From contig JBBKWB010000020.1 of the NCBI GenBank assembly GCA_037968755.1, positions 2,228-66,227 on the forward strand: a stretch of 64,000 nt of DNA, given 5' to 3'. A program made the position numbers and the translations under genes. Under the pieces are notes generated by a model. It was given only the letters and a program-made list of their open reading frames with translations, was not told where the DNA came from and made no database searches. The DNA is from Woeseia sp. Lineage in GTDB: Bacteria > Pseudomonadota > Gammaproteobacteria > Steroidobacterales > Woeseiaceae. Below are positions 15,530 to 42,272 of the stretch, piece by piece (the first letter of the stretch is position 1; the number at the start of each line of letters is the position of its first letter).

Positions 15530-15546
15530 TGCTCCTGTAATCGTGA

Positions 15547-21816: not shown

Positions 21817-22824
21817 ATGAAAAGTAACAATGCCCGGTCGCCGATAGTAGCGCGCGCGGTAGCTTTTTTGTTACCCGCACTTTTAATTCCGTGGGTTGCC
21901 GCCGCGGCGGAAGTTGGTAGTGGCGGTGTCATTATTCGGGTTGACGACGGCTTGTCGCAGGAATTTTGTGTCGATGGCAGCAGCGATCAAATTTGGCTGC
22001 ACCTGCGCCGATTCATCGCGCGCAGGGACAGCAATGTATTCAAAGCTGACTCCAGCATTGGAATGGTTATTGACACCACGATTACAGGCGACATCGGGCG
22101 GCAAAAAGACAAGATCAATTTTCCGATCGTCTTCCAGGCCACAGTACGCAGCTACCAAAAAGGCCTGGTCTCAATTCCTATCGAGAAAGGCATCTTGTCA
22201 GGCTTTGCGTTGAGATCCGGCGACACTCGCTACACGCAGGTCGACTTCTCGTTTCGGTTTCTGAAAGTGCAGGAAGATACGACCATCAGTCGTGCGATCA
22301 AGTCTATTGCCGGTATCACGGAGGCCTTCAATATTCCAGCAGAATTGTTTGGTGGTTCATTTCAGATGTACGCATCCGTCGCATCGTCGTTGATCGACAA
22401 TGTGTTCACCGACAACCGTTACAGCACTAAGGATCCGCTGGCATCCATTGTCCTGGCGTTCGATCCTACCGGACAGTGTGACAATTTATTGTTCGAGAAA
22501 ACTGGTACCAAGGCAGTCATCTTGAGCGCGGGTGGTGACGAAAAAGATGGCATCGTCAGTATCGATACGATCAACGGCTACTGTTTTGCCGCAGAGCTGC
22601 GGCCGGCTTTCGAATTGTGGTTCTGGAACCGGGTCGGTGGAATTTGCGAGGCCCGGCCCGCTGATGCGAAGCAGCTGCGCAATCCTTATTTCGGTTTCTA
22701 CGTGACTGCGACTCCGACCGATAATGCAGCGCCAACGCGTGGTGCACGCGATCAAAGCATGTTGAGCCTGTGCGCCGCGCATGGGCTAACGGATCCGATG
22801 CAATGCGGCGGCATCAGCGAATAG
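21817..22824 (+). CDS. hypothetical exported protein (no family recognised)
   Basis: 335-aa ORF with signal peptide AFLLPALLIPWVAAAAEV. Its 3' end overlaps the start of the downstream CHAT gene. Confidence 0.5.
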   Translation: MKSNNARSPIVARAVAFLLPALLIPWVAAAAEVGSGGVIIRVDDGLSQEFCVDGSSDQIWLHLRRFIARRDSNVFKADSSIGMVIDTTITGDIGRQKDKINFPIVFQATVRSYQKGLVSIPIEKGILSGFALRSGDTRYTQVDFSFRFLKVQEDTTISRAIKSIAGITEAFNIPAELFGGSFQMYASVASSLIDNVFTDNRYSTKDPLASIVLAFDPTGQCDNLLFEKTGTKAVILSAGGDEKDGIVSIDTINGYCFAAELRPAFELWFWNRVGGICEARPADAKQLRNPYFGFYVTATPTDNAAPTRGARDQSMLSLCAAHGLTDPMQCGGISE

Positions 22825-25484
22825 CGACACGCGCGCTTGTCAAAACCGCGCTTCTGATCGCGGCAGCGAACGCTTTGGCGATGAGCGGTGGGACGCCGTG
22901 GGCCGAGATTAGTGCAGCGGTGCCCGAGGCCAGCCGCGATCCCAGTCTCGCTGGACCTGTACTGAACTCGGTAAAAGAAGTGCTGCTCAATGCGCGCGCC
23001 GACAATGATGCTATCGGTTTGGCAATGGCCAGTTTCGTAGTCGGCGAAATCCTTGAGCAGAACCAGGTTTACCAGGAAGCGCTGCAATACTACGAAAGTG
23101 GGCTGCAGGTACTGGCGGACAGTGACACGGTCGTTGCCATCGATGTCGATTTTCTGCTGCAGCGCATTCAAGGATTTGAAAAGCGATTCAGCGGGCCTGC
23201 CCAAATGCCTGGCAGCGCTGACCTGTACCGCGGCCGTGCGAATTCTGGGCAAATCGCATCGCTGTCAAAAGCTGCCGCATCACAACATCTGGCAACAGCG
23301 CTGGCAGTGAATGTCGGCAACCTCTACCTGCGGCAAATGCAGCTTCAACCGGCGGCCGAGTATTTTATGGCGGCGGTCTCATCCGCAAAGCAGTCCGGTG
23401 ATATTTCCGCCGAAGCAGAGGCGTACTCCAACCTTGCGTGGACGTCGATCACTGGTGGTGACTTCGAGTCGGCGACGCTGCATTTGCGCGAGGCGATGGA
23501 GCTGGGCGGCAACAACGGGGTTCGTGAGCCGCTCCGCAAAGCGACCCTGGCAATTGGAGTAAATGCACGCGAAAGCGGCCAAGTCGAAGCTGCGATTGAA
23601 AATCTAACGAAAGCTGTTGGCTTGTATAACGATGTGGGCGACGAGGTTGGCGTGGGGCGCGCCCGCGCACACCTGGGTACGGCACTACTCCTCGCCGAAC
23701 AACTGCACAGCGCAAAGGATGCATACTTGGCTGCGCTACTTATAGGTCGGGAAACAGGGGACGAGGAAACAATCCAGCACAGCCGTGGCGGCCTGGCGCG
23801 AACGTATCAGAAACTGGGCGACTGGCCGTCATCGGCGGCAGCTTTCGCAGGCTATTTTGATGCGTTAGATGAATTCGTTAGCGCTTGGCGCACAGATCAG
23901 GGCCGCGTTGCGATATTCGAAAGTCAACAGGCAATGCTTGACGATTACGCAACCGTTGAAAGCGAGATTGCGATGCAGTCGGGCGACTTTTCCCGCTTGC
24001 ACGCGGTTATACAGAAAGTGCGGGGTCGCGCACTGGCCTGCTTATTGCAGTCCAAGCAAAACCGAATTGTCCGTCCGGCAGGTATGCTGGACGGTGGTAC
24101 CGTCTTCTACGGAAAAAACTGGGATTACATACAGCGAGAATATGCGCATGCGATAGGCACTGACGCGGCTATGTCAATGATGGAACAACGTGCGCCAGCC
24201 GTTGCGGTGGGCACGACCACAACGGCCGACGCCGTCACCGATCACTGCGGAATTCAGACTGGCTTCGCCGAACGAACGCATAGCGGCCCTCCGATACTTG
24301 AATACTATGTGGCGCCAGACCGCCTCGTTATTCTGTTGACGGATGAGCGCGGGATTCATGGTCAGATTATCGACATTGGGGCATCTGACCTACGAACACG
24401 AGTGAACCGCTACCTGGAGGCGATTCAAGTCGATCAGCCGCGGGGTGTTGTCGCCGCCGGCACAGCCGCAACAACCCAAGCTCAGGCCGGCGATGTGCAA
24501 GCAGCCATTGCACGCCAACTGTACGACCAGCTGATACGGCCCGTCGAGACGCACCTGCGGCAAAGTACTCACAAGTCCATTGTCATTATTCCGGACGAGT
24601 CGTTGTGGCGTTTACCGTTCGCTGCGCTACTTGATCGAGAAGACCGCTATTTCGGAGATCGTTTTGAAAGCGGTTACATCACTTCTCAAACCGCGCTTAG
24701 TATGCTCCGTTCGCGTCAACGGCACGCGGATCACAATTCGGTGCGGGCCTGGGTTGTCGGTAACCCAACCTTGCCGAATGCCGTCAATGGTTGCGGCGAA
24801 CGCTTTGAGCTCAGTAACCTGCCGAACGCTGAAGCGGAAGCAACAGAAGTTGCCGAAATTTTGGGCGAAAACAATGTCGATCTGTTCGTCGGCGGCGCCG
24901 CAGATCGACTTCGACTGGATGCCTGGCATTCCGATTATTCGGTGTTGCATCTCGCCACGCATGGCATCGCTTGCCCGAGTGATCCACTCAGTTCTTTTGT
25001 CGCACTGACTGCCCTCGACAGCACTACACTCAAAATTCCGCCAGACAACACGATCGCCGAGAATGTTGTCGATTCTCGTTTGCCGGTACAACTGAATTTT
25101 GATTTTGATCTGGAACAGGTTGATGCAGAGCCTTCACCCTCGTATCCCGGTGTATTGCAGGCGCGCCACGTAATCAATGAATACAATCTTCAGGCTGATT
25201 TGGTCACGCTCAGTGCCTGCCAGTCCGGACTTGGGCAGGTGTCAGGTGACGGAACAATCGGTTTTGCGCGGGCTTTTCTTGCCGCGGGTGCGCGATCCGT
25301 TATCGTCAGCTTGTGGAAAGTGGACGATCACGCTACACGTTTGCTCATGACCCAGTTTTACAAAGGTTATGCCGAACACGGTAACAAGGCACGTGCGCTG
25401 CAGAATGCCATGACAGCGACGCGGGCTATTTATCAAGATCCGCAGTACTGGGCCGGTTTCGTTCTGATCGGCATGCAGGAGTAG
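22803..25484 (+). CDS. TPR-repeat CHAT-domain protein, exported
   Basis: Met at 22803 gives signal-like MRRHQRIATRALVKTALLIAAANALA (the ORF opens at 22770). CHAT dyad VLHLATHG and LSACQSG, followed by SLWKVDD. Confidence 0.85.
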   Translation: MRRHQRIATRALVKTALLIAAANALAMSGGTPWAEISAAVPEASRDPSLAGPVLNSVKEVLLNARADNDAIGLAMASFVVGEILEQNQVYQEALQYYESGLQVLADSDTVVAIDVDFLLQRIQGFEKRFSGPAQMPGSADLYRGRANSGQIASLSKAAASQHLATALAVNVGNLYLRQMQLQPAAEYFMAAVSSAKQSGDISAEAEAYSNLAWTSITGGDFESATLHLREAMELGGNNGVREPLRKATLAIGVNARESGQVEAAIENLTKAVGLYNDVGDEVGVGRARAHLGTALLLAEQLHSAKDAYLAALLIGRETGDEETIQHSRGGLARTYQKLGDWPSSAAAFAGYFDALDEFVSAWRTDQGRVAIFESQQAMLDDYATVESEIAMQSGDFSRLHAVIQKVRGRALACLLQSKQNRIVRPAGMLDGGTVFYGKNWDYIQREYAHAIGTDAAMSMMEQRAPAVAVGTTTTADAVTDHCGIQTGFAERTHSGPPILEYYVAPDRLVILLTDERGIHGQIIDIGASDLRTRVNRYLEAIQVDQPRGVVAAGTAATTQAQAGDVQAAIARQLYDQLIRPVETHLRQSTHKSIVIIPDESLWRLPFAALLDREDRYFGDRFESGYITSQTALSMLRSRQRHADHNSVRAWVVGNPTLPNAVNGCGERFELSNLPNAEAEATEVAEILGENNVDLFVGGAADRLRLDAWHSDYSVLHLATHGIACPSDPLSSFVALTALDSTTLKIPPDNTIAENVVDSRLPVQLNFDFDLEQVDAEPSPSYPGVLQARHVINEYNLQADLVTLSACQSGLGQVSGDGTIGFARAFLAAGARSVIVSLWKVDDHATRLLMTQFYKGYAEHGNKARALQNAMTATRAIYQDPQYWAGFVLIGMQE

Positions 25485-25511
25485 CACCATGCGACACGAC
25501 AGGGGTTAGCG

Positions 25512-27650
25512 ATGAAAAACACTCTACGAGTGACGCCGTTTGTCTTTGTATTTGTATCGGCATTGGTAGCGGTGCAGATGTTCGCAATTGGTGATGCGAT
25601 GGCGGCAAAGCGCGCGCTGATTGTAACGATCGGCGAGTATCAGCCCGATACGGGCTGGAAAACAATCAGTTCAAACAGCGATTTACCCATCATGCAACAC
25701 GCTCTTGAACGTCAGGGTTTCGCAATCGACAATATCACGCATCTTTCTCAAGAGCGGGCGACGCACGACGGCATTGTTAAGGCCATTGAAGACCACCTGA
25801 TCAAGCCAGCCGCGCCAGGCGATGTTGTGGTGTTTCACTACTCCGGTCACGGTCAGCAAATTCGTGACGACAATTACGACGAAATAGATGGCTACGATGA
25901 AGCACTCGTGCCAGTCGACGCGCCGGAATCTCCGCCAACAGGATACAACGGTGAAAAGCATCTGCGTGACGACGAACTCGGAGCGCTATTGTACAGATTG
26001 CGGAAACGTGTTGGTCCTAACGGCGACGTACTGGTGTTCCTGGATTCGTGCCATTCGGGAACAGCGACACGCGGTGATGCTTATCCGGACCCAGTGCGCG
26101 GCAGCGCTTCTCCAATAGGTGCGCCGCTGGAACATGATGGTGCGCATCGCAATGACAACGACGCTAGCGGCTTTCTGGATGCTTCATCACAACGGGGAAC
26201 TGGCGGTGATAATCCCGAAGACCTGGCACCAATGGTGGTAATCGCCGCCGAGAATCACAACCGACTCGCTGAAGAAACCACCGACGAAAACGGCGGCCGC
26301 GTTGGCGCCTTGAGCTGGGCACTCAGCAAGGCGCTCGTCGATGCCGACGAACAGACCACCTACCGCGACTTATTCGAGACAGTCAAGCGTCACACTGCGG
26401 CCAAACACATTCCCAATAGTCCGCAGGCGGAGGGGAAACTCGACCGGTTGCTGTTTGCAGGACAGGCAGTCGACCAGAACCCGTACTACCGAGTGAAGGC
26501 AATGAACCTCGATGAAAAGTGGGCGGAACTTGAGGGCGGTGCGCTGGTTGGTTTGCTCAAGGGTTCGGAAGTCGAAATTCATCAGGTGAATACTCGTCTG
26601 CCGCAGCCCGATACTCTGATTGCAAAAGGCAGGGTCAATCATGCAACGCCGTATACCGCCGAAATCGCGATTACTGAGGTGGTTGAGACGGGCGCCGAAT
26701 CCGGCATTGCTTTTGTTACCGCGCAATCTTTCGGTTCGCTGCGCGTCAATGTCTATGTTGATGCGGCGGATGATTCAGTCTGGCGCGAGAAAGTGGTCTA
26801 CACATTGGAACGGGAGGCCGCGCGGCAAACGTCCCTGATCGTGCTGCTCGAAGAAAAACCAGCTGGCCTGGTTGCAACCGACGCGAGCAAGATTGTATTG
26901 GTACGTGAAATCAGGAACGGGGCACCGTCCCAACGTGGTGTCGTTCTGGAGACTTGGGAGAACGGCCAACGTCTGATCCCTGGTCCCTTTAAGACTTCAG
27001 ACCCGGCATTGGCCAGCAAACTGATCGCGCGCATAGAACGGTATGCACAGAATGCCTACCTGCGGGCATTGGATGTACAGGCAGATGGAATGGAGGTTGC
27101 GCTTGATCTGATTCCCTGCGAGACGGAATGCACGGGTTTGAGCGAATGCGGTGGCAGTTGCCGTTGTATTGCAGAAGGTGATCCACAGGATATTTTAGAT
27201 ACTGGCAATAACCTGAGCATGAAAAAAGGCGCGGGATTCGGTCTGCGCCTTAGAAACGTCGGTAGCAAACCGGTTTATGCGACCGTTCTTGACTTGATGC
27301 CTGATGGGGATATCGCGTCGCTGTGGCCACTACCCGGGACGTCCGCCGCCGATACCAAGATTGAGGGAGGCAAGGCTTATCGTATAGCGGACCCCAATCA
27401 CCAGAACGAGTTAGCAGTGTATCTTGCCTGTCCGCCGTTCGGCACCGATATGCTGAAAATCATCGCGACGACAGAACCCGTCGATTTTGGTCCGATTACG
27501 CGCGGCACCCGAACACGTGGCGGTGAACGCGGCCCTCTGGACGTGTTGTTCGAAAACAGCTTGCGCGGAATGCGCGGTGTCGCACCCGCATTCGCTGTCG
27601 GTTCAATCAGCACGTCGTCCGTTTTGTTAATCGTGGAGGACACTGAGTAG
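25512..27650 (+). CDS. exported caspase-like (C14) protein with DUF4384-like C-terminal domain
   Basis: Signal peptide. Dyad HYSGHG and LDSCHSG. The C-terminal segment GFGLRLRNVGSKPVYATVLDLMPDGDIASLWP is DUF4384-like. Confidence 0.85.
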   Translation: MKNTLRVTPFVFVFVSALVAVQMFAIGDAMAAKRALIVTIGEYQPDTGWKTISSNSDLPIMQHALERQGFAIDNITHLSQERATHDGIVKAIEDHLIKPAAPGDVVVFHYSGHGQQIRDDNYDEIDGYDEALVPVDAPESPPTGYNGEKHLRDDELGALLYRLRKRVGPNGDVLVFLDSCHSGTATRGDAYPDPVRGSASPIGAPLEHDGAHRNDNDASGFLDASSQRGTGGDNPEDLAPMVVIAAENHNRLAEETTDENGGRVGALSWALSKALVDADEQTTYRDLFETVKRHTAAKHIPNSPQAEGKLDRLLFAGQAVDQNPYYRVKAMNLDEKWAELEGGALVGLLKGSEVEIHQVNTRLPQPDTLIAKGRVNHATPYTAEIAITEVVETGAESGIAFVTAQSFGSLRVNVYVDAADDSVWREKVVYTLEREAARQTSLIVLLEEKPAGLVATDASKIVLVREIRNGAPSQRGVVLETWENGQRLIPGPFKTSDPALASKLIARIERYAQNAYLRALDVQADGMEVALDLIPCETECTGLSECGGSCRCIAEGDPQDILDTGNNLSMKKGAGFGLRLRNVGSKPVYATVLDLMPDGDIASLWPLPGTSAADTKIEGGKAYRIADPNHQNELAVYLACPPFGTDMLKIIATTEPVDFGPITRGTRTRGGERGPLDVLFENSLRGMRGVAPAFAVGSISTSSVLLIVEDTE

Positions 27651-27689: not shown

Positions 27690-30422
27690 CTACAGTTGGC
27701 AGCGACTGCCGCTACAGACCCGTCCTAGTGCACCTAATCCCGGCAAGCTGATGCCGCTCTTCGCCTCGTCGTCGAAGCGTTTGTAACGCCAGCATCCTTT
27801 CAGTTCCATGTCAGGTCGGTCCCATTTGCGCCAGTCCTGTTTGTACTTGATGCGCTGAAACTCGACACCGGTTTCCGCCTTGATTTTGTAGTCCGATTCT
27901 TTCGCACTGCCGTCCCAGCCGTGCGATCCCCACGCAATACGCTTGGCCGGGTCGATCACCATAACAACATGACCGTCGTTACGAACATCGCTGCGGTACA
28001 CCAGTATGTCTCCTAACGACAAGTCTTCATTGGCAGGACATTGTTCAAAATCATCTGCCATTAAGGAATCATCGGCGACCATCTGTGCAGTTGCGAGGTA
28101 GCTATCACTCCGGTTGTAGTCAAGGCCCGCGCGCGTGAATGCGTACCAAATCGCACGCGAGCAATCGATGCCTTCTGCGAGATTTGCTTCGTCGGATGCC
28201 TTCGACCAGTCGTGTTGGAGGTAGGAGAAGCCCTCTCTTCGTGACGCACCGGCTAGCCACTCGGCTTGTTTCAAAACGCGATAAACCGCCGAGTCTGGGT
28301 CGTCAGGCAAGTACGGGCGGACATCGAAGTTTCGTAAGGTGTACTCGCGAATGTCGATATCGTTAGTCGTGGTACTGGCCTTCTTGAACGACTGGTTGGC
28401 ACGGACACGAAACGGCACCGCGCTGATCGTCCAGGTCGTGTCCTCAACAATTCCGCCAGATGCCTGGATGCCACGCGTACCCGGGTTGAGGTAGTTGTGC
28501 AGTGCCCTTGCGAGCGAGGATTTCCGGGGTATACCGGGACCGCGTGCGGCGGCGCTTTTGGTCATCAAATGCCACGGGACCGGGTTGCTTTCCTCGGTAC
28601 CGAACACGAGTATGTGTTCCTGAATATTCAACGGCGGCACGCCGACAAACCCCTCTTCGTTTTTGTTGAAGATGAGCTCTTCGCCCGGTCGCAGAATTTC
28701 TGTTCGACCGTCAAATGGAAAACCAAATGTCGACCCATCGCTCGACAGGGCCACCCCGCCGACGGCCAGTGCTTTCGGCGATTGTTCCGAGAGTCTCACC
28801 TTGACATGCCACTTGTGGCACAACGGGATCAGCTGTTCCTCGTTTGGTTGCGCTGCAACCCAGCTTCCGTCCGCGCATTCCGACTGTGACTCGGATTCAA
28901 CAAGCTGAACCTGCAACGTGCTGTGGTCGACAAAATCAGTGCCGCCCTCACCAACCAACAAAAGCAGAGCGCGTTGCCGGGCATGTTGCCAGAGACTCTG
29001 TGGCACAGTGTCCTCACTTGCGTACACGTTGCGAATTCGATTTTCTGGTCCCCGTAGGATCAATCGACTTCTTTCGTCGATACTCAGTTCAAATTGGTCG
29101 TCATGATCGACGAGTTCAACCAGCGCTTTGGCCTCGGGATCGGTAACAATCATCTCGCGAATCGCATCGGCACGGCGTTGCGGGATACCGCCTGGCAGGT
29201 TTGGGTCACGTAGTCCCACTCTGATCTTTAGTGCGTCGTCGCTGACGCGGACGAGGACCGCGAGATCACCGGGCTCAATGGCGGCGGCACCTGGCATTTC
29301 GGTGGCAATTACGGCACGTGCATTCAACCCCGTTGACTCGGTCACTACTACCGTTGCCTTCGCTTTCGCCGGATCGCCCAGGTCGCCGGGCGTTGCCGCG
29401 CCATCGTAAACCCGGAACTCTGCTCCGCGACCGGCACCGGTTAATGGCGGCCCGCCGATCTCAAGCGGATCTACGTCAATTACGTCCCAGCCTGCGGCGC
29501 GAGTGCCGCTGCGATTGCCGAAGACCGCCCGATTCAGGTCACCCTGAAAATACGGAATCTGATAGCTGTTCGCTGCAACCAAAGGCGGGACCTGGCGAGA
29601 CAGTTGCGCGTACGTCATTATGCCGGCGCGTGGTCGGGACAGGACCTGGATCAGGGCGCCAGTAAACACGCCACTCTCGGCGGTTTCAAGCGCTGGCGTT
29701 CCGTCACTGGCTGCGGTCAACGCAACCAATCCCGGCAGCGAATCGGGGGCCCAATCGCCGCCGCCGTCGCCGCCGCCGTCATCACCGCTACTGGTTGGTG
29801 TCGCGGTGCGCGCCGTTCTCGGCAGGAATCGCGCCTGCAATTCGGAGTCACCGCGCGTTGATGTGCCGGAATTACACGAATCAACAATGGCGACGATGTT
29901 GCGCGTCTTCGCATGCAGTTGCTGCAACATTTTGTGAAAGTCGTCGTCGACCAACTCGTCAGCACCCCAACCATCGGCGTTGTGAAAGACAAACGTTTCA
30001 TCCCATTCGTCAGGTTCATCACCATTCTGGTCAGTCACCTGTGAGCCATGGCCCGCGTAAAACACGACCGCCACATCGTTTTCCCGCGCGCGATCGACAA
30101 GCGCCTCCTTGAACGCGTTGCGGAAGTTGTCACTTGTGGCCGCTTCATTCTGCAGCATGCAGATATTTTCTTTCGGGAAGTTATAGGTGTTGGTCAGAAG
30201 CTGGTATATGCCATTGGCATCAGCGAGCGTCCCTGGCAAGTCGGTGACGGATTCGTTAGCGTAGTCGCCGACGCCAACGATCAGTGCAAGATGACGGGTA
30301 CCGTCGATCGCGATTGCGTCGCCAATGTCACACATGTCGCTTTCGGGTGTGGTAGCCGTCTGGCATGACTGCACACCGAGAATCGATAACAGGGTCACGC
30401 ACACACGTTGCAGCTTATTCAC
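27690..30422 (-). CDS. lipoprotein fusing an N-terminal caspase-like (C14) domain to a C-terminal NlpC/P60 cysteine peptidase domain
   Basis: Lipobox LGVQSC. Caspase dyad FYAGHG and VDSCNSG (about 29780-30300). NlpC/P60 motifs GIDCSRAIWYAF and GDILVYRS...GHVVMVID (about 27900-28200). Confidence 0.8.
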   Translation of the reverse strand: MNKLQRVCVTLLSILGVQSCQTATTPESDMCDIGDAIAIDGTRHLALIVGVGDYANESVTDLPGTLADANGIYQLLTNTYNFPKENICMLQNEAATSDNFRNAFKEALVDRARENDVAVVFYAGHGSQVTDQNGDEPDEWDETFVFHNADGWGADELVDDDFHKMLQQLHAKTRNIVAIVDSCNSGTSTRGDSELQARFLPRTARTATPTSSGDDGGGDGGGDWAPDSLPGLVALTAASDGTPALETAESGVFTGALIQVLSRPRAGIMTYAQLSRQVPPLVAANSYQIPYFQGDLNRAVFGNRSGTRAAGWDVIDVDPLEIGGPPLTGAGRGAEFRVYDGAATPGDLGDPAKAKATVVVTESTGLNARAVIATEMPGAAAIEPGDLAVLVRVSDDALKIRVGLRDPNLPGGIPQRRADAIREMIVTDPEAKALVELVDHDDQFELSIDERSRLILRGPENRIRNVYASEDTVPQSLWQHARQRALLLLVGEGGTDFVDHSTLQVQLVESESQSECADGSWVAAQPNEEQLIPLCHKWHVKVRLSEQSPKALAVGGVALSSDGSTFGFPFDGRTEILRPGEELIFNKNEEGFVGVPPLNIQEHILVFGTEESNPVPWHLMTKSAAARGPGIPRKSSLARALHNYLNPGTRGIQASGGIVEDTTWTISAVPFRVRANQSFKKASTTTNDIDIREYTLRNFDVRPYLPDDPDSAVYRVLKQAEWLAGASRREGFSYLQHDWSKASDEANLAEGIDCSRAIWYAFTRAGLDYNRSDSYLATAQMVADDSLMADDFEQCPANEDLSLGDILVYRSDVRNDGHVVMVIDPAKRIAWGSHGWDGSAKESDYKIKAETGVEFQRIKYKQDWRKWDRPDMELKGCWRYKRFDDEAKSGISLPGLGALGRVCSGSRCQL

Positions 30423-30488
30423 CGAATTTCTCCCAAGGCAGACCGGAGATTAGATAGTATAGTCCCAACCACAGACCGGGAGACAATC

Positions 30489-31919
30489 ATGTTGAAATGG
30501 GCGGACAGACTAGGCCGGCTGGTGCTTCTCTCCTTTGCGGTGATTGTCGTATATCGGTTCTGGGTTTGGTGGATGCCGGATGAACCGGAAACTTATTTGC
30601 GGACAGACTTGGTTAACGCGCAGGAGTCCGACGCGTTTGTTACCGGGTTTGCGATGGTTGCCCTCGTGCAATTCGATACTGGCCGCGACAAACTCGTAGC
30701 CTTCTCGTTCATAGAGCCGGAGGCCAACCGCAGAGACGTCAAGGGGTTTTGCTACCGACTGTACGAACTCGTAATCGGCTACGACAGTCTGTGGGCGACT
30801 GTGAAATCGGCAGAGGCTCGGCAAGGTAGTGAAGTCCAAATCGATCCACCGCGCGTCCTTGCGGCGGATGTCGTCGAGGCTCGCCAGGGTGGCGATGATA
30901 CCAGCCAGGCGAAGTGTGATCGTATTAACCTGGTCAGCGGCGAGACCAACAACGGCGCGCGGCTGGCAATGTTGCAACAGTCCCTGGTTGACAACAATCA
31001 GTGGGACAGTCACGTGCGGCATGCTACCAACGTCATCACGACGTTTTCCGCGACTATCGCTGCACGCCGCCGCGCGGTGTTCGACAATCGCCTGGACAAT
31101 CTTGAAACTGCGAGCAGGGGGTTGGCTGGTACCGCAACGGTGGCGCAATACAATGAGTGGCTCGAGCGATCGCGGGAAGGTTTGTCAGTTGCTGCGAGCG
31201 ACGAAGGCACGCGCGAGCTGCGACGAACAACAAACATAGAAGCCCTGGACTCTGCACAGCCTCTACCCGAAACAAGGGGAATCGATGATCGCGGCGAATC
31301 GCAGAGTCGCGGTTTGCTGGGTGACGCGAAGGATGCCATCGGTGGAGCTCTCGAGTCCGAGGCGAGTCATGTCCGTCTGGCGATTGCCGATGCCGGCGGA
31401 TTTCTCGGCACGCTGAAACTGACGTTTTCCACGATTGGCATCTTCACGCAGCAGGCTCGCAAGTGGGTGTTCTGGAAGAACGGACAGTTCTATATTCGCC
31501 AGGACTTCGCGGACGCAACCTACGGCAGCGACTTTACGCTTGATCTGGCACGTTCCCGGGGCGGCTTGTTCGCACCCCGGCGGCTTGAAATCACTGTGCC
31601 AGAGCCGTATCTGCTGGCGCTTGATCGTTACACAACAGTTATCGTGGCCAGGCCGGACGACTTTCAACTCAAGCTTGAAGACGATACCGGAAATACCATC
31701 GAAGCGGCGATGAAAGCGGATCTGCAAACGCAAATCGATCGAGTGGAGCCGCAGGCTATTCGCTTTGCCAAGGCTCTCTTAACGACGCAAATCCAACAAC
31801 TAGTGGAGGCTGATGTGTCGGAGGTCAGGGTACGTTTTGCAGAACGCGACTCCGCGTCACCGCAACAATTGACCGAATTGATTCGTTTGATGCGCGAAAG
31901 ACCCGAAGAAAACGACTAA
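30489..31919 (+). CDS. hypothetical membrane-anchored protein
   Basis: Start set at Met28 (MLKWADRLGRLVLLSFAVIVVYRFWVWW, single N-terminal TM). 476 aa. No family recognised. Confidence 0.5.
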   Translation: MLKWADRLGRLVLLSFAVIVVYRFWVWWMPDEPETYLRTDLVNAQESDAFVTGFAMVALVQFDTGRDKLVAFSFIEPEANRRDVKGFCYRLYELVIGYDSLWATVKSAEARQGSEVQIDPPRVLAADVVEARQGGDDTSQAKCDRINLVSGETNNGARLAMLQQSLVDNNQWDSHVRHATNVITTFSATIAARRRAVFDNRLDNLETASRGLAGTATVAQYNEWLERSREGLSVAASDEGTRELRRTTNIEALDSAQPLPETRGIDDRGESQSRGLLGDAKDAIGGALESEASHVRLAIADAGGFLGTLKLTFSTIGIFTQQARKWVFWKNGQFYIRQDFADATYGSDFTLDLARSRGGLFAPRRLEITVPEPYLLALDRYTTVIVARPDDFQLKLEDDTGNTIEAAMKADLQTQIDRVEPQAIRFAKALLTTQIQQLVEADVSEVRVRFAERDSASPQQLTELIRLMRERPEEND

Positions 31920-31962: not shown

Positions 31963-33531
31963 CTACATCAAGGCCACTGCGCGCTCCGCCAACGCACCGA
32001 TAGTGCGCGTCGGATTGCGCCCTACGGCCTCGGGAATTATCGAGCCATCGATGACAAAGAGATTCTGGTAGCCGAAGACTGAGCCCTTATGGTCTACGAC
32101 GCCGGTGTCGCGGCTAGTGCCCATGTTACAGCCGCCGAGCGGGTGTGGCGTCACCAGGTTTTTCAATAGTGTCCAGGTCGGCGGCACCCACGGGTCGCCG
32201 TCAGTCGCAAATGAGAGCTTCTTGTGCATGTCTACGATCGCGTCCATGACAGCCTCGGACTTATCGATCTCCCAATCCAGTTTCAGAGTCCGGGTCCACG
32301 GCCAGTACCATTTGCGGCCGAGATACATACGACCGTCGGCTGCATCGATGCCTTGCGAAAACCAGGGCATCATCTTGTTCAGAGGGTCGCGGCCTCGCAT
32401 CTTCTTGTGAATTTGGTCCAATGCCGGCCGATATTTACGTAGCTTTTTCCGTGTGAGCATTTCTTCTCTGAGATTGCCGACAACATCAGGAAAGCCACCG
32501 TCTTCGATCCAGAATTGCTGTCCATCCTGGCTGCCGTCCAGAAAATCGATCGCCGAGGTGATCGTCGGACCCTGGGTTGGAGACACGCGCCGTTCTTCGT
32601 AGAAAGCGGGTGTCAGGAAGTCGCCGTTGGAACTCCACCTATGACCGAGAACCGGGCTAATGTCACGCAGCGTCTTAAATTCGTCGCGACATCGCAATAA
32701 TAGTTCGGTCGAATTCAACGACCCCGCTGCAACAACAACGCGCTCCGCCTGCACCGAATCGCGCGCCAGTTTTCCGTCCGACAGTCGATCGTAGTCGAGC
32801 TTGTAACCCGAGCCATCTCTGGAAATACGACGAACGATATGCAGCGGCCGAATCTCAGTGCCAAGTCTTTCGGCAACCGCGAGATAATTCATTTCAAGCG
32901 TGTTTTTCGCGCGCACATCGCAACCAATGTCACAATTGCCAAGATGTATGCAAGTGCCCTGTTCGACGCCATGCTGATTTGTAAACGTTTTTGAGTGCTT
33001 GTGATTGAACTTGTCGTCTAGCCCGTAATGCCAGTCGTCGTCGAAGGTGACGGCGATCGGTAACTTCCGAAAGCGGTCGCTGTGACCGATTGCAGCAGCT
33101 CCGTCGCGCATCAGCTTAAAGCGCTCTGTTAGTTGACCATCCGGTAATTCCTGAACATCCAGCATACGTCCGACTTCGTCATAGTGAGGCTTGAGCTCGT
33201 TGTAGGTGATCTCCGGTGGCCAACCCTTGTCGAAAATAGCCGGCGGAGCCTCGACGGAAATGTTGGCGTAAATCAGCGAACCACCGCCGACAGCCGCTCC
33301 TTGCACAACGGCCATATCGGGAAAAATACGAAAATCGATCCAGCCATTTTGCCGGTGCGGTTCATCGACATCGTAGATCCAGTCATCCGTCAGTGAGCGT
33401 GGATACTCGCTGACGTCCCAACGCCGCCCGCGTTCAAGCACCAGAACCTTTGCGCCCTTCTGCGCCAGCCGGCATGCGGTAATCGCACCGCCGAATCCGC
33501 TGCCGATTACGATAGTGTCAAAGGTCGCCAT
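31963..33531 (-). CDS. GMC-family flavin oxidoreductase (cholesterol-oxidase-like)
   Basis: FAD motif DTIVIGSGFGGAITACRLAQKG. C-terminal HPLGGCNMG...FVIDGSIIP is typical of the GMC C-domain. Confidence 0.85.
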   Translation of the reverse strand: MATFDTIVIGSGFGGAITACRLAQKGAKVLVLERGRRWDVSEYPRSLTDDWIYDVDEPHRQNGWIDFRIFPDMAVVQGAAVGGGSLIYANISVEAPPAIFDKGWPPEITYNELKPHYDEVGRMLDVQELPDGQLTERFKLMRDGAAAIGHSDRFRKLPIAVTFDDDWHYGLDDKFNHKHSKTFTNQHGVEQGTCIHLGNCDIGCDVRAKNTLEMNYLAVAERLGTEIRPLHIVRRISRDGSGYKLDYDRLSDGKLARDSVQAERVVVAAGSLNSTELLLRCRDEFKTLRDISPVLGHRWSSNGDFLTPAFYEERRVSPTQGPTITSAIDFLDGSQDGQQFWIEDGGFPDVVGNLREEMLTRKKLRKYRPALDQIHKKMRGRDPLNKMMPWFSQGIDAADGRMYLGRKWYWPWTRTLKLDWEIDKSEAVMDAIVDMHKKLSFATDGDPWVPPTWTLLKNLVTPHPLGGCNMGTSRDTGVVDHKGSVFGYQNLFVIDGSIIPEAVGRNPTRTIGALAERAVALM

Positions 33532-33567
33532 TGTCTGTTACTCCGCGTACATGAGTTCTATGCCACC

Positions 33568-35538
33568 TTACCGATAGGAAATGGATATTGGCCCTTCGAT
33601 CAGGCTGGAAAGTGTTTCGATATTGCCCGATTTCGGTTCAAACCAAGGCTCGCCGCGGCCGGCGTCTGGCTGCAGCGACCAGCTAGAAAGGCGACGTTCA
33701 ACACTGTCGATTGCCCAACTGGTATCGTGCGGCACCTTGGTCACGCCGACCGGGTAAATCGTCATCGTTCCGTCAGCCTTGATATGAAATCGCAAAAAGT
33801 TCTTGTAGTCCGGATCGCTCTGGCAAAGCAGTATTTCGTTGTCATGCAGATCAAACAGTCGATTCGAAATCCATAGGTAGAGGCCGAAGACCATTCCGCC
33901 GAGAAAACCGCCAATCACCAACATTTCAACGCCGAACAACAACACCTGCCGCCATTCGTCTACGTCGAATTCCAGAATGCCGAGGTTGACGAACGCAATC
34001 GCGCGCATGAAAAACAAAAACAAAACGATGTGTGCCAAGGCATGCAGGACGCCATGCACAATACGTTTAGCGGGATGCTGGAATCCGGAAAAGGCAATCA
34101 GCCCAAGCGTCAGGATAAACATGAAAGTGACACTTATTGGACTGTGCGCAAGTACGCGGACGATTGCCAGTAAATCAAACTGTGTTGCCAACTTGTCAAG
34201 CAATGTCGCGCCACTGCCGCTGGCTCCTGCAGATATCTTGCTGACGCTCTGGATAACCCAGGCAAGCAGCAGGTAAAACGTGCCAATGAACGCCGAGAAT
34301 CCCCAGTTGAGGCGAAAGAATGGAAACAACAAGCTGCGAATAGCGAGACGCTTCGAGGCTTTTCTACCAGGGAAAATCGCTTTACGCTGACAAGTCTCTC
34401 CGCCGAATTTCTCGGGCAACTTGAGTGTTTCGGGCATATTGTGCGTCGGGTATAACGACGCACCGCCGCCACCGGATACGAACCGCTGCTGCCGCCCATC
34501 GCCGTCAGCTTCGTAACGCGTGTAGTTGTGGGCATCGCCGGCCAGGGCAACCGTTATGTTGTGGTCAAACTTCTCTATGAGCGTTTTTTGCAGGTGGCCG
34601 AGGTTGTTGTATTCCTTTTCCTTTTGGCGCTCCTTCTGCACCGGATCGCGTTCCTGATGCGTGTGCATCTCGACATAGGCCCAGCTCGGCTCCGCCGTAC
34701 AAAGAATAATGTTCGAGCCGCGCGGCATTAGTTCCGCAATTGCACCAAAATAGTCGAGCTGCGGCTTGTCGATATTCGCGTTCAATTGAATGTCGATACC
34801 CCAGACCCACAGCTGTTCATCGAGCCGCAATGAAAAATAGCTGCGTTTTTGTTGCGTCTTCCAGCCGCCAATCCAGAGTTTGTGGCAGAACAGCTGAAAG
34901 AAACTGCCGAGGCCGTCATACCAGTCATGATTGCCCGGCACGACGTAGAGGTGCGGCGCTTCGTCGGCATCAGCGACGCTCGGCAGTGCACTGCGATACG
35001 GCCCGATCAGCCGATCACCGTACTCCGTGAGGCTGGACGTGGGATAGACCTGATCGCCCCCCATTACAAGAATGTTGCCGCGTTTCGTCTTTATTGGCGC
35101 ATCGCTTTTTGCGATGCTGCCCATACCATTGGCGTCAAATGCGAGTTCATCTTCGGCAAGCAAGCGCGCTATCGTGTACGTCGGATCCCAGCCGTCGCCC
35201 AGATCGCCGACGTAGTCAATCCAGATCTCGCCGTTACGCTGAAAATAGCCCGAATAGTCATGCCATTCGCTGGGCGCGAGCACAGACTCGATTTCACGCT
35301 TGTCCGCGTATGAACCAAAAATGCCGGACACGACGGCGCGAAAACCGGCAACGAACAACTCCTTCGGACTGTACCAGCCAACCATCGGCTGCGGTGTGAA
35401 GTCCAGGTCCTTGAGTGTCGACGGCACCGGCACGCTGTATTGCTCTTGCGGGTCAGCTTGCGCCGAAGCGCTGTTGGACCAATCGTGCTCGCGTCTGATC
35501 AGAGTACTGTTGTTCATTGCTTCCGCCCCGGCCGACAT
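33568..35538 (-). CDS. membrane-bound metallophosphoesterase
   Basis: Calcineurin-like motifs GDLGDGWD, GGDQVYP, VPGNHDWYDG and LAGDAHNY. The C-terminal half has about 5 TM helices. Confidence 0.7.
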   Translation of the reverse strand: MSAGAEAMNNSTLIRREHDWSNSASAQADPQEQYSVPVPSTLKDLDFTPQPMVGWYSPKELFVAGFRAVVSGIFGSYADKREIESVLAPSEWHDYSGYFQRNGEIWIDYVGDLGDGWDPTYTIARLLAEDELAFDANGMGSIAKSDAPIKTKRGNILVMGGDQVYPTSSLTEYGDRLIGPYRSALPSVADADEAPHLYVVPGNHDWYDGLGSFFQLFCHKLWIGGWKTQQKRSYFSLRLDEQLWVWGIDIQLNANIDKPQLDYFGAIAELMPRGSNIILCTAEPSWAYVEMHTHQERDPVQKERQKEKEYNNLGHLQKTLIEKFDHNITVALAGDAHNYTRYEADGDGRQQRFVSGGGGASLYPTHNMPETLKLPEKFGGETCQRKAIFPGRKASKRLAIRSLLFPFFRLNWGFSAFIGTFYLLLAWVIQSVSKISAGASGSGATLLDKLATQFDLLAIVRVLAHSPISVTFMFILTLGLIAFSGFQHPAKRIVHGVLHALAHIVLFLFFMRAIAFVNLGILEFDVDEWRQVLLFGVEMLVIGGFLGGMVFGLYLWISNRLFDLHDNEILLCQSDPDYKNFLRFHIKADGTMTIYPVGVTKVPHDTSWAIDSVERRLSSWSLQPDAGRGEPWFEPKSGNIETLSSLIEGPISISYR

Positions 35539-35547
35539 TTCGTGTGG

Positions 35548-37107
35548 TCAGTCATCTTTACCGGCGAGTCGCGCGTAGGAATCCCAAAGTTCGCCTAGAA
35601 AGAACTTGCCGAATCGCAGAATCGTCTTCGCCGACTCTGCTGTCGAAGACGTCCCCGTCGCTTTCATCGTCGATACCAGTTTCGCAAGTTGCGTGATACC
35701 GAGTTTGAGTACACCGGCGCCAACAACCTCACCAGCAGTGTCGGTACCACGATACAGGACCGTGTTAAGCGTCGTTGTGTCGGAGAGCAAATCGAATCCG
35801 GGGTCGTCGCGCACGGTCTTGCGCCCGGCAAGGTAGTAGGACTGACCGTCATGCTCGAAACCCAGCTCATAGATCATGTACTTCGTGTCGGGCGCGTCCG
35901 TCGGCGAGAACAGGTTAAATACGCCTGTGCTAGCCGGTATGCCTGTGCCGAGTGGTGTGAAATCGATGCTTCCGGCGATTTCGCCGACGTGCTGCGGGTC
36001 GTCAATAAAACCAGCCAGATCGCGAATGTTGATGCTGGCGTGCATGGCAAGTTTCGTATCCTCCGCTTTACCTTTCCTGGCACCAGCGGCGGAGTCGGTC
36101 TCGTGTAACGCAAAGTAACCCTTCATGGTTTCGCGAAAGCTGATTCCTGCAGCAGAATTGTTCATCTGTGTTACCTCAGGTGAGAAGCCAACGCCGCTGT
36201 TCGTCATTGTGGCGAGATATGATCTTGCGTCCGCGTAACCCATCGCAATCAGAGTGTCAGAGTCTATGCGGCCGAGATAAAGGTCCGGGTCGAGCGGCAG
36301 TGGATTGGCCGGCTTGATAACGTGCAGTCGAACTGGATTTGCCTGGCCATACGGGCTGTCGCCGGCAGCGATACGACGATTCAGATCGTTGATGCGATCG
36401 AACTCCTCGGCCAACCCGCCCGCAGCACTCATTTCGATCATATGAACATACTGCTCGAATGGCCCAGCTTTGTACTCCGTTGTGTTGCCGATGCACCAGA
36501 CCAACCAGATTTCCTCTGCACCACGCCTGACGGCTTCGAAGCAATTGGCGTCTTTGATCCAGACCGAATCGGTATAAACAACACCGTCCTTCAAGACAGG
36601 TGGCATGAACACCGGAAGTGAAATACCTGCGACGAGATAATCGAGGTCGAGATCACGGTGCGATATGGCTTCATTGGTTTTTCGCGAGAAATTGCAGACG
36701 TTAAAGGTGCCTTCCATGCTGGTCGCCTTGTTGATCTTGCCAACGTCGATGCCTAAATGCGGAAAGACCTTCTCGATGATGCCGTCAGCGTCGCCCATGG
36801 CCATCATATCGGCGGCATTGAGGTATTTGTGGAATGGCACGAAAGAAACGAAATCACGAACTTTCAATGTACGCCAGCGAGCACACATTTCCGTCGGGCT
36901 GAGGCCGGAAAACAGCATGGCGAGATTGATCGTGCCACCAGACGTACCGTCGCCATGGCTAAAGTCAATGCCTCCGTCTTCGAGTGCTTTGAGGACGCCC
37001 GCCTGGTAGGCAACCCGGATACCGCCGCCGGCCAGGATAAGCGAGCGCTTCGGTCCTGCAGCATTCGCGGCGCGGGACAGGCTAACGTTAGCGGAGGCGG
37101 GACTCAC
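35548..37107 (-). CDS. patatin-like phospholipase with an uncharacterised ~200-aa C-terminal domain
   Basis: Oxyanion motif LAGGGIRVAYQAG and nucleophile motif GTSGG. 4-nt overlap with the upstream gene. Confidence 0.85.
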   Translation of the reverse strand: MSPASANVSLSRAANAAGPKRSLILAGGGIRVAYQAGVLKALEDGGIDFSHGDGTSGGTINLAMLFSGLSPTEMCARWRTLKVRDFVSFVPFHKYLNAADMMAMGDADGIIEKVFPHLGIDVGKINKATSMEGTFNVCNFSRKTNEAISHRDLDLDYLVAGISLPVFMPPVLKDGVVYTDSVWIKDANCFEAVRRGAEEIWLVWCIGNTTEYKAGPFEQYVHMIEMSAAGGLAEEFDRINDLNRRIAAGDSPYGQANPVRLHVIKPANPLPLDPDLYLGRIDSDTLIAMGYADARSYLATMTNSGVGFSPEVTQMNNSAAGISFRETMKGYFALHETDSAAGARKGKAEDTKLAMHASINIRDLAGFIDDPQHVGEIAGSIDFTPLGTGIPASTGVFNLFSPTDAPDTKYMIYELGFEHDGQSYYLAGRKTVRDDPGFDLLSDTTTLNTVLYRGTDTAGEVVGAGVLKLGITQLAKLVSTMKATGTSSTAESAKTILRFGKFFLGELWDSYARLAGKDD

Positions 37108-37505
37108 TTTGCTCGATGCGCGTCAACGACGCGGCGAATAGAAAACCAATAATAGAAGATAAGCACGGCAGACAGCAGGTCAAAGGCGGCAACACCGAGG
37201 GCCAACCAGGAAAAAAGGTCACGAAAGACCCCCAGGCCGACGGCAACCGCTGCACCGAATTTCTGCAAGCCACACCACATCACGGGCATTGGTTGCGGCG
37301 ATGCTGCGGCCAGACTTTGCCAGAGCAAGCCGCCAAACAGCACCATAAACATGCCGACAATTGCGAAGAAATGATTGGTTGCGGCACTAACGTCGCCACC
37401 GACGATAGCGAGCACCCACTGTGGCTTGATCATCTGCACAAGGCCACTAACGATAGTGAGCAATGCGATAACTTTAAGCAGCCGTACAAGAACTTTCCCG
37501 ATCAT
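37104..37505 (-). CDS. small polytopic membrane protein
   Basis: Start moved to Met46 (ATG 37505), preceded by AAGAGGAA. 133 aa with four hydrophobic segments. Confidence 0.5.
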   Translation of the reverse strand: MIGKVLVRLLKVIALLTIVSGLVQMIKPQWVLAIVGGDVSAATNHFFAIVGMFMVLFGGLLWQSLAAASPQPMPVMWCGLQKFGAAVAVGLGVFRDLFSWLALGVAAFDLLSAVLIFYYWFSIRRVVDAHRAK

Positions 37506-37537
37506 CGAATATTCCTCTTTCACGGTCGCAATCCTGA

Positions 37538-38020
37538 CTACTCTTCGCTGCTCAGCGAGGGCTTCATCAGCAGGTAGACAATGAGCGCAAGCCACATGAT
37601 GGTGACTATGATCCAGCGAATGTCGTTTAGCATCATCCATTCGCTTAGCAATTCAGTCAGTCGCGCCTGCTCGACACCCGATGCTATCTGCTTGTTTACT
37701 GGGATTATCAGAAATCGGCCAACGAGTGTTGCGCCAACGACACCCAAAAGTCCGATGATTGCATGCCAGCGAAAGCGGGTTTTCCATTCCATCCGAATCA
37801 TGTTGATGCTGGTCAGGAACATGATCGGAACGACGATCGTAAAAAAACGAGTCGCTGCGCTGGTTGGCAGAATGAAATGATCCTGCACGTTGTCGACGTT
37901 CATGACCTCCCAGCTTGGATACCAAAAATAGTGCAGCGCCCACAAGACCCCCATGTAGACGGTCGCGCCAAACATCAGCAGGATGTGGTTTGCGCCAACT
38001 AACAACTGTTTCGTATTCAT
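37538..38020 (-). CDS. DUF1772-like (anthrone-oxygenase-type) membrane protein
   Basis: 160 aa with 4 TM helices. The PVNKQI...W..LNDIRW pattern resembles DUF1772. Confidence 0.45.
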   Translation of the reverse strand: MNTKQLLVGANHILLMFGATVYMGVLWALHYFWYPSWEVMNVDNVQDHFILPTSAATRFFTIVVPIMFLTSINMIRMEWKTRFRWHAIIGLLGVVGATLVGRFLIIPVNKQIASGVEQARLTELLSEWMMLNDIRWIIVTIMWLALIVYLLMKPSLSSEE

Positions 38021-38032
38021 GATCGTGCTCCC

Positions 38033-38926: not shown

Positions 38927-38945
38927 ATCAGGCCACCTTTGGTTG

Positions 38946-39980: not shown

Positions 39981-40168
39981 TTGTCAATACGGTCTCTTGG
40001 CGGAGCACTGCTGTCTGGAGCTGGCGTCGCGACCGACATAATACCTCGAATCGCCCTCTAGATGCGACTTCAATCCCATATACGCCGGGCGTTCTGGGGC
40101 GCATAATAGGCTACCGATGGCGGCGTCAGACGCGCCCAGGTGGCGATACAGGCGAGGAGTAATGGCAG

Positions 40169-41939: not shown

Positions 41940-42272
41940 ATGAATTTCGCGAACAACAATACTGGCAAGGTTACTTGGCTGACATTGGTGGTTGTCATCG
42001 TCGCCCTGTTGCTGATTGCGCCGTTTATTGTGCGCCTGATTACCCCAATGGAATCGAAATTGCCGAACACTAGCCTCGTAACGGAAGATGATGACGAGGC
42101 CGCGGGTACGCCCAACACCGCACCCAGCCTGGTGACCGAGGACGATGACATTGAATATGGCGCGGTAATCGCCCCAGATGTACCGACAGATGCCGAGCCC
42201 ATCGCGATCGATGGTGCCGCTCAACCCGACTCTACTAGCGGCGAAAGAGCGCTTACCGATGAACCAAAATAG
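41940..42272 (+). CDS. small single-pass membrane protein with acidic repeat tail
   Basis: Start set at Met23. TM segment WLTLVVVIVALLLIAPFIV. SLVTEDDD occurs twice. 14-nt overlap with the CHAT gene start. Confidence 0.45.
   Translation: MNFANNNTGKVTWLTLVVVIVALLLIAPFIVRLITPMESKLPNTSLVTEDDDEAAGTPNTAPSLVTEDDDIEYGAVIAPDVPTDAEPIAIDGAAQPDSTSGERALTDEPK

Follow-up and report, generated by a model that had tools for sequence, protein, structure and literature searches.

The window analysed here is a 64,000-nucleotide stretch of Woeseia sp. DNA (contig JBBKWB010000020.1), and the gene under study, hereafter the target, occupies 27690..30422 on its minus strand. It encodes a polypeptide of 910 amino acids (aa) in which a predicted metacaspase domain, a middle module and a divergent domain of the NlpC/P60-CHAP type follow a signal peptide. 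Its features are as follows, with conservation counts taken here and below from an alignment of 56 homologues, and model confidence given as the predicted local distance difference test (pLDDT).

27690..30422, minus: complete gene of 910 codons plus stop, with a GTG start and an upstream GGGAGA Shine-Dalgarno sequence
30363..30422, minus: signal peptide (residues 1-20) ending in the lipobox ...LGVQSC, whose Cys20 is presumably lipidated and is aligned in 51/56 homologues
29526..30296, minus: metacaspase-type Peptidase_C14 domain, residues 43-299, from Pfam, a PDB profile search, Foldseek and the invariant dyad
30048-30050, minus: catalytic His125, 56/56 homologues
29997-30032, minus: acidic motif DQNGDEPDEWDE within the C14 domain
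29874-29876, minus: catalytic Cys183, 56/56 homologues
29751..29867, minus: disordered loop after the catalytic Cys, residues 186-224, at the p20-p10 linker position (pLDDT below 50; alignment)
28395..29525, minus: middle module, residues 300-676, with three confidently modelled beta-rich and alpha/beta subdomains
28350..28394, minus: variable 14-17-aa inter-domain linker, residues 677-691 (alignment; pLDDT below 50 at 685-690)
27693..28349, minus: divergent NlpC/P60-CHAP papain-like domain, residues 692-910, from sub-threshold Pfam matches, PHROG 1015, Foldseek and hhalign
28161-28163, minus: Cys754, 56/56 homologues
27969-27971, minus: His818, 56/56 homologues
27921-27923, minus: candidate third residue His834, 52/56 homologues
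27912-27914, minus: candidate third residue Asp837, 56/56 homologues

The open reading frame (ORF) is real, intact and conserved across its family, as the sequence-only reading of this DNA, which described one lipoprotein carrying both domains, had assumed. The Shine-Dalgarno sequence lies six bases upstream of the GTG start, the GC content around the gene (0.56-0.58) is the same as in the rest of the 64-kb window, and no sigma-70-like promoter was detected around the gene. All of the motifs quoted earlier are present at the expected residues, namely FYAGHG (H125), VDSCNSG (C183), GIDCSRAIWYAF (C754), GDILVYRS...GHVVMVID (H818), AWGSHG (H834), LGVQSC (C20) and SSGDDGGGDGGGDW.

In a search of 5.8 billion proteins, we found 275 that match the 910-aa query at E<=1e-3. 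Not counting the window's own protein, 119 matches were listed; their lengths are 816-970 aa, they have 48-67% identity and cover 90-100% of the query, and they come from NCBI, ENA, JGI and Logan assemblies. They are named at most 'caspase family protein' or, at JGI, 'cell wall-associated NlpC family hydrolase', and no NCBIfam family covers the whole architecture of C14, middle and C-terminal domains. Scanning one genome per species, we found relatives in 366 genomes, from Gammaproteobacteria, Desulfobacteraceae, Nitrospirales, Acidobacteriota and Myxococcota among other groups, with the full-length architecture in 56 of the 79 genome loci that were kept. Cultured carriers include Thiococcus pfennigii, Marinobacterium sedimentorum, M. 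profundum, Methylomonas aurea, Desulfobacter curvatus DSM 3379 and Thioalkalicoccus limnaeus.

The protein could have been an artefact, that is, two genes joined by a sequencing frameshift or a chance ORF. However, more than 100 independent clusters returned by the protein-database search share the full-length architecture at 90-100% query coverage, the same form recurs in those 56 genome loci, and the full-length AlphaFold model is confident (mean pLDDT 84.5; predicted template-modelling score, pTM, 0.83). Hence, the artefact reading is refuted, and we give it practically no weight.

The N-terminal C14 domain was confirmed by Pfam (PF00656 Peptidase_C14, 80 bits vs. a cutoff of 21.4 over residues 43-299) and by the invariance of its dyad, H125 in AGHGS and C183 in DSCNSG. 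Using the family profile against the PDB, we found that the C14 region matches metacaspases only (Yca1 at 2e-22, AtMC4/9, TbMCA2 and GSU0716) and no caspases. Foldseek likewise returned AtMC9, AtMC4, GSU0716 and Yca1 (E 3e-11 to 7e-8, target TM-score, i.e. template-modelling score, 0.53-0.69), and the AlphaFold model has a caspase-hemoglobinase fold with pLDDT mostly 83-96 across the core strands and helices of the domain. NCBIfam NF047832 (EACC1-associated caspase type) scored 55 bits, below its curated cutoff of 140. On the basis of the metacaspase matches in the PDB, the acidic motif and the conserved loop Arg, we predict that the N-terminal domain is of the metacaspase subtype (C14B). It shares with the bacterial metacaspase-like proteases or orthocaspases (MEROPS C14B; Microcystis MaOC1, Geobacter GSU0716 3BIJ) and with Yca1 and AtMC4/9 the caspase-hemoglobinase fold, the His-Cys dyad in AGHG/DSC, acidic D/E residues clustered after the His and, following the Cys, a disordered loop that contains Arg. 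Unlike them, the target is predicted to be exported and lipid-anchored, and it has two further parts, a ~375-aa module specific to the family and a second cysteine peptidase.

The loop of residues 186-224 has invariant Arg190 and Arg198 and a conserved TRG...ARF segment followed by a variable acidic stretch, and we regard it as a candidate autoprocessing site. A Gly/Asp low-complexity run at about residues 210-223 had been assigned to the spacer between the two domains; it actually lies in this disordered loop, within the C14 envelope of residues 43-299. The spacer itself, put at about 500 aa, measures ~375-390 aa (residues 300-691) and is, in the AlphaFold model, mostly confidently folded and beta-rich, not a flexible linker. 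Its middle module, which carries invariant Cys516/Cys535, matched no Pfam or NCBIfam family, and Pfam at E<=10 on each half was also empty. Foldseek with the middle region gave generic Ig-like/beta-sandwich matches only (E>=0.02), the full-length search being dominated by the metacaspase domain. A DUF4384-like identity for the middle beta-sandwich, as in the neighbouring C14 protein, was not supported by hhalign, in which five sub-alignments gave probabilities below 3%.

The inter-domain linker is bounded by the conserved motifs RVEAN-x-RF and (K/R)-R-EYT, and Arg692, near-invariant and just after this variable, low-confidence segment, is a candidate for Arg-specific cleavage. We found a short form of the protein in 22/79 genome loci, where the match stops at about residue 673, at the linker; Nitrosomonas marina carries such a natural short form that lacks the lysin-like domain. 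The C-terminal domain also occurs alone or in other fusions (see below). Hence, as judged from sequence comparison, the lysin-like domain is a detachable module on a core of C14 domain and middle module. At two homologous loci (L008 1426-5088 and L016 10001-13604), the tblastn match to the target spans ~3.6 kb vs. the usual ~2.7 kb, which suggests an insertion, duplication or frameshift in those homologues.

The evidence on the C-terminal domain came from sequence profiles and from structural models. Across 23 homologues, Pfam gave marginal matches to four related families: DUF4846 in 20/23, NLPC_P60 in 19/23 (at E<=0.1, best 6.3e-6), Amidase_5 in 15/23 and CHAP in 8/23, and homologue P0117 carries a precomputed PF00877 match. 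The PHROG 1015 family, 'tail protein with lysin activity', was matched at E=8.9e-9 across the lysin end of the profile. An hhalign alignment to E. coli MepS/Spr (E=3.6e-4; taken as supporting only) places GIDCS and GDILVYR...GHV on the catalytic motifs, with GHV opposite HVGIY. The lone PDB sequence match of the domain, a lysostaphin SH3b fragment at E=0.8, was set aside as not relevant.

The model of the C-terminal domain (pLDDT 80.8) was searched with Foldseek, and the best PDB match was the D,L-endopeptidase CwlO (8WT3, probability 0.99, target TM-score 0.70, E=0.019), followed by PlyPy, Ly7917, Gsp amidase and the LysK CHAP domain. Six viral models in BFVD matched at E<=1e-3. Two of these six carry the name of a CHAP-domain protein, and the weaker matches include some with endolysin or lysin names. 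By DSSP, C754 opens helix 754-764 and H818 lies within strand 816-824, in the non-permuted order of Cys then His. The C-terminal domain is thus placed, by sequence profile and modelled fold, in the NlpC/P60-CHAP superfamily, with phage tail lysins as its nearest sequence relatives. Hence, the NlpC/P60 assignment of the sequence-only reading stands at superfamily level, with Cys754 and His818 in 56/56 homologues and modelled fold matches to CwlO and CHAP lysins; as an assignment to the Pfam NLPC_P60 family, it misses the cutoff.

With CwlO, MepS/Spr, NlpC, CHAP endolysins and the PHROG 1015 tail lysins, the domain shares the non-permuted Cys...His papain-like core, GIDCS and GDxxxxR...GHV, and the target would be lipid-anchored as MepS and NlpC are. 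Unlike NlpC/P60 and CHAP peptidases, it stays below the Pfam cutoffs, forms a narrow family, begins with a helical extension (residues 692-745) and ends in a tail rich in Cys. The spacing of its candidate third residue from the His looks more CHAP-like than P60-like.

The profile of this domain found 175 matches among 1.84 billion representative proteins, mostly the full-length fusion or fragments, and retrieved no canonical NlpC/P60 enzymes. The domain also occurs alone behind a signal peptide (P0225 and P0229) and, again behind a signal peptide, fused to an FGE-sulfatase domain (P0196 and P0202) or to YARHG repeats (P0197 and P0200). FGE-sulfatase and YARHG are both already known as partner domains of bacterial metacaspases (PMC3501461, PMC3355149). 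In P0190 (268 aa), a secreted stand-alone copy of the domain, Thr replaces the catalytic Cys (GLDTSR), and this protein may be an inactive binding or regulatory paralogue.

The envelope location drawn earlier from the lipobox was supported. The lipobox, MNKLQRVCVTLLSILGVQS-C, has an atypical Gln at -2; Cys20 is aligned in 51/56 homologues, many of which have a canonical L-x-[GA]-C lipobox, and a relaxed lipobox pattern was matched in 36/56. Eight more conserved cysteines are non-catalytic (five invariant, three in 54-55/56), which is consistent with an oxidising compartment. The product of 27690..30422 is therefore probably an exported, lipid-anchored polypeptide, as predicted from its N-terminus.

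We surveyed the neighbours of target homologues by tblastn, with window and locus proteins as probes, in the 79 genome loci, and counted genes within 10 kb in the 33 full-length loci that have at least 5 kb of flank on each side. In these 33 loci, we found TPR-CHAT genes in 19, core genes of contractile injection systems (CIS) in 17, another C14 gene in 13, a 229-aa polytopic membrane protein in 13, a PASTA protein in 8 and a phage-type lysozyme in 8. The CIS genes are syntenic in 23 loci, in the order tube, VgrG-like spike, gp25, Baseplate_J, P2-I-like and then PASTA, with 30-75% identity. Hence, judged by gene order and sequence identity, the CIS clusters beside the family are one CIS lineage. 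Among the cultured carriers, Thiococcus pfennigii, Thioalkalicoccus limnaeus, Marinobacterium sedimentorum and Methylomonas aurea have their homologue next to this cluster. The accessory genes of these clusters are as follows.

L006 7700-8512, L058 2117-3343 (three repeats, Pfam) and L001 19042-20424 (minus): bitopic PASTA protein, encoded right after the P2-I-like baseplate gene
L006 9157-9846 and L058 3949-4644, minus: membrane protein of 229-231 aa with ~8-9 hydrophobic segments, found in 25/79 loci, no family match
L001 8929-9633 (minus) and L058 16261-16992: Phage_lysozyme-family protein, found in 20/79 loci, with a lipoprotein signal in L001 (LAGC)

Lacking a signal peptide, the PASTA protein consists of an N-terminal domain of ~120 aa, a single transmembrane segment at its centre and a varying number of PASTA repeats (one to several), so that its N-terminus is predicted to lie on the baseplate side and its repeats in the periplasm. 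The position of its gene is the one held by the tail fibre gene in Afp/PVC clusters. Position and topology together suggest a CIS anchored to the inner membrane and the cell wall. The 229-231-aa membrane protein, which might be a transporter-like or holin-like component, lies between the CIS/PASTA genes and the target homologue, often divergent from the latter. In Nitrosomonas marina, the gene order is baseplate, a protein with three PASTA repeats, a 182-aa protein, the 231-aa membrane protein (opposite strand), TPR-CHAT, a 285-aa protein, the short C14 form, a 321-aa protein, TPR-CHAT and lysozyme. A separate lysozyme gene, which could make up for the lost lysin-like domain, was found at 9/22 short-form vs. 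11/56 full-length loci, a trend that is not significant (Fisher p=0.08).

The target homologue sits at either end of the CIS cluster, and cluster ends are the usual site of payload genes in extracellular CIS. It could accordingly be toxin cargo, injected into other cells to degrade their walls in the manner of the Tae amidase effectors of type VI secretion, and a distant fold match to the type VI effector Tae3 (rank 23, E=0.47) would fit this. We consider cargo very improbable, chiefly because the Sec/lipoprotein signal routes the protein to the envelope of the producer, whereas CIS cargo is loaded in the cytoplasm. In addition, no adjacent immunity gene is evident, the gene is found in varying orientation to the CIS, the window has it but no CIS, and 910 aa with a rigid multi-domain body is large for loading into a tube.

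In the window, the target is surrounded by genes for exported proteases, an island that the sequence-only reading had left unrecorded; the CIS association at homologous loci could be seen only from other genomes.

12416-14296, minus: S8 subtilase
14309-15550, minus: stand-alone autotransporter beta-barrel
15547-17271, minus: Sel1+C14 protein
17585-19225, plus: C14 protein
19380-21620, minus: TPR-CHAT lipoprotein (lipobox LTAC)
21817-22824, plus: 335-aa secreted protein, first gene of the convergent three-gene operon 21817..27650
22770-25484, plus: TPR-CHAT protein, same operon
25512-27650, plus: C14+DUF4384 protein, same operon
30408..31919, plus: N-terminally membrane-anchored protein of no assigned function, divergent from the target
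42178-45042: further TPR-CHAT protein of the exported-protease set

The operon 21817..27650 converges on the target in the window; in L048, L054 and L065, the same trio (335-aa protein, TPR-CHAT and C14) shares the strand of the target homologue and follows it immediately downstream. The C14 domain encoded at 25512-27650 is a paralogue of the target C14 domain (30% identity over ~350 aa). The true start of the divergent gene at 30408..31919 is likely an ATG near 30489, which would leave an intergenic gap of ~66 bp, and a relative of its product lies beside target homologues in 1-2 loci only. In total, the window encodes four C14 proteins, three TPR-CHAT proteins, one S8 subtilase and one autotransporter barrel, all with N-terminal signal-like segments, and as a set they resemble a network of extracytoplasmic proteases more than a defence island of the cytoplasm.

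Bacterial conflict islands are places where caspase and CHAT proteases cluster, and with its four C14 genes, three TPR-CHAT genes and a patatin, the window could be read in this way, with the target as an effector of programmed death or abortive infection. A stress or phage signal would lead the caspase to activate the lysin, and altruistic lysis would follow. Related CIS of Streptomyces mediate cell death (PMC10066040), and Asplund-Samuelsson et al. have argued for a cell-death role of metacaspase-amidase fusions. Against this, all of the components are exported and so would not directly sense a cytoplasmic infection. PADLOC-DB v2 gave no defence-system match; the target matched only the generic 'caspase' model (55.8 bits), the adjacent TPR-CHAT protein and the proteins of no assigned function matched nothing, and beyond generic caspase, TPR and BovA domain matches no system model was found. 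No gene for an NTPase, sensor or nuclease partner adjoins the target, and the gene is chromosomal and kept across many phyla with no mobile-element hallmarks nearby; the window has no tRNA genes or Rfam families that would mark a mobile island. Hence, the export signal and the lack of a PADLOC system match argue against a cytoplasmic phage-sensing suicide module, and we rate a suicide effector as improbable.

A Nitrospirales chromosome (OZ245007.1; L003 1-9470) has genes for S8 subtilases, an autotransporter barrel and a Big_1 protein beside the target homologue, which echoes 12416-15550 of the window in a distant phylum. By tblastn across the 79 loci, the autotransporter barrel was found in one locus only and S8 was undetected, so linkage of S8 and barrel to the target appears to be rare or too divergent for detection. 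Downstream of the island, a run of genes for lipid and redox enzymes at 31963-41854 encodes a GMC oxidoreductase, two Metallophos-like proteins (one with four C-terminal transmembrane-like segments), a patatin-like phospholipase, an acetoacetate-decarboxylase-like protein and an alpha/beta hydrolase; three genes probed from this region were near target homologues in 0/79 loci. An unusually large ORF of 1697 aa at 57257-62350 (minus) has an N-terminal OmpA-family peptidoglycan-binding domain (residues 83-186), a weak DUF2490 match and otherwise no family. Far from the target, a separate set of cell-wall genes at 5376-10989 encodes a glucosaminidase-domain protein, a polysaccharide deacetylase, a D-Ala-D-Ala-ligase-like ATP-grasp protein and a putative Zn metallopeptidase.

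Taken as a whole, we read the target as an exported periplasmic lipoprotein that combines a metacaspase with a peptidoglycan peptidase under protease control and that serves CIS in many relatives, and we give this reading slightly better than an even chance. The C-terminal domain would cut stem peptides of peptidoglycan, which we consider probable from PHROG 1015 and the wall-directed neighbours. The rigid beta-rich module (~375 aa) would hold the two cysteine peptidases apart. The agent of control could be the metacaspase domain of the protein itself, presumed to be Arg/Lys-specific, which would make Arg-specific cuts within residues 186-224 (the disordered loop) and/or at Arg692; alternatively, it could be the co-encoded TPR-CHAT proteases. 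By analogy, the lysin-like domain may be held in check and then released or destroyed by proteolysis through either of these, a proposal that we make tentatively.

The analogy is with E. coli, where MepS, a lipoprotein of the NlpC/P60 family, is under the control of NlpI, a TPR lipoprotein, and of the protease Prc (PMC11211486). As there, a putative periplasmic lipoprotein of NlpC/P60 type would go together with a TPR protein and a protease, and the TPR-CHAT proteins of the window, one with a lipobox, would unite the latter two in one chain. Unlike the S41 protease Prc, the CHAT and C14 proteases belong to clan CD, and in the target one protease is fused to the putative hydrolase.

In the CIS-linked relatives, controlled wall cleavage would serve CIS deployment, either through a local opening in the wall or through lysis and the release of particles. 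Since the module lies at the ends of CIS clusters, the cluster encodes the bitopic PASTA protein, and a lipoprotein lysozyme recurs nearby, wall cleavage in these genomes may serve passage or release of the injection machine, which we hold to be possible but short of an even chance. In the window, which has no CIS genes, the target would instead be the wall-cleaving output of the exported-protease island.

Several results weigh against this reading. The cutoff of 23 for Pfam PF00877 NLPC_P60 is not reached (16.6 bits with the full protein, 18.9 bits with the domain alone), PDB sequence searches with the C-terminal domain, whether from its one sequence or from a profile of 23, gave no relevant match, and its Foldseek E-values against the PDB are weak, at 0.02 or higher. 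The putative third catalytic residue His834 is Met in 4/56 homologues, Asp837 being present in 56/56. No recognised peptidoglycan-binding domain (LysM, SH3b or PG_binding) was found in the protein by family searches. Sheath, tube and baseplate genes are absent among the scanned ORFs of at least 150 aa in the 64-kb window. Elsewhere, the orientation of the target relative to the CIS cluster varies, so that co-regulation with the CIS is not established. Gating of the lysin domain by the caspase domain is something that we purely infer.

Some of these results, namely the sub-threshold Pfam scores and the lack of a wall-binding domain, would also fit a non-wall substrate, in which case the C-terminal domain would have protease, amidase or acyltransferase activity towards another envelope substrate, for example a lipoprotein, a link between protein and peptidoglycan or a small-molecule amide, and the protein would be a two-headed periplasmic protease within a proteolytic network. 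The same holds for the private nature of the family (the 175 matches, with canonical NlpC/P60 enzymes missed by the profile), for fold matches that include glutathionylspermidine/trypanothione amidases, AvrPphB and the PCAT peptidase domain, and for the other fusion partners, FGE-sulfatase and YARHG, which are without proven function. However, the best sequence match is a phage tail lysin family, the best structural matches are CwlO and CHAP endolysins, and the recurrent neighbours (PASTA proteins and lipoprotein lysozyme) are wall-directed, so we consider a non-wall substrate unlikely and retain the reading as a peptidoglycan peptidase under protease control.

Fusion of a metacaspase to a peptidoglycan hydrolase is not a new idea. 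Metacaspase-Amidase_2 and PG-binding fusions were catalogued by Asplund-Samuelsson et al. in 2012 (PMC3501461), and a caspase-YARHG protein was noted by Coggill and Bateman in 2012 (PMC3355149). Like these, the target would join an extracytoplasmic metacaspase to a domain that hydrolyses or binds peptidoglycan (there Amidase_2, PG-binding or YARHG); unlike those catalogued, it has a partner of NlpC/P60 type, a larger family and a fixed three-part architecture. The sequence-only reading was not aware of a characterised example; we found none either, the catalogued fusions included, and no report of a C14 fusion to an NlpC/P60-type domain in open-access papers and preprints. In the same literature, we found no report of a caspase, CHAT, C14 or PASTA component of any CIS. 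What appears to be new is the conserved combination of C14 with an NlpC/P60-type domain, the divergent lysin family and the genomic association with CIS; the enzyme folds are known.

Accessory functions at the membrane or wall that are comparable and CIS-linked exist in tailocin lysis cassettes. Like CIS accessory envelope proteins, the family members are products of genes beside CIS structural genes and would act at the membrane or wall, not in the particle. In Streptomyces, the bitopic protein CisA is needed for firing of the CIS (PMC12237407), and the PASTA protein is, like CisA, predicted to be bitopic and is encoded beside the CIS structural genes. A further-reaching proposal, which we regard as unlikely, is that the family, the exported TPR-CHAT and C14 proteases and the lipoprotein lysozyme are the periplasmic arm of an undescribed class of envelope-anchored CIS. 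These CIS would be anchored by the bitopic PASTA protein, whose gene directly follows those of the baseplate, and an extracytoplasmic caspase-like cascade would time wall cutting for firing or for lytic release. If true, this would be a bacterial link that joins caspase-fold proteases, wall breakdown and a phage-tail weapon.

For two decades, the debate on whether caspase homologues control bacterial lysis has drawn largely on domains that co-occur. In this family, an intact metacaspase and an intact lysin-like domain are physically joined in one chain, predicted to lie in the compartment of the wall itself, which makes the question directly testable. The recurrent CIS adjacency and the membrane-spanning PASTA protein point, in addition, to CIS accessory functions that may serve passage through the wall or release.

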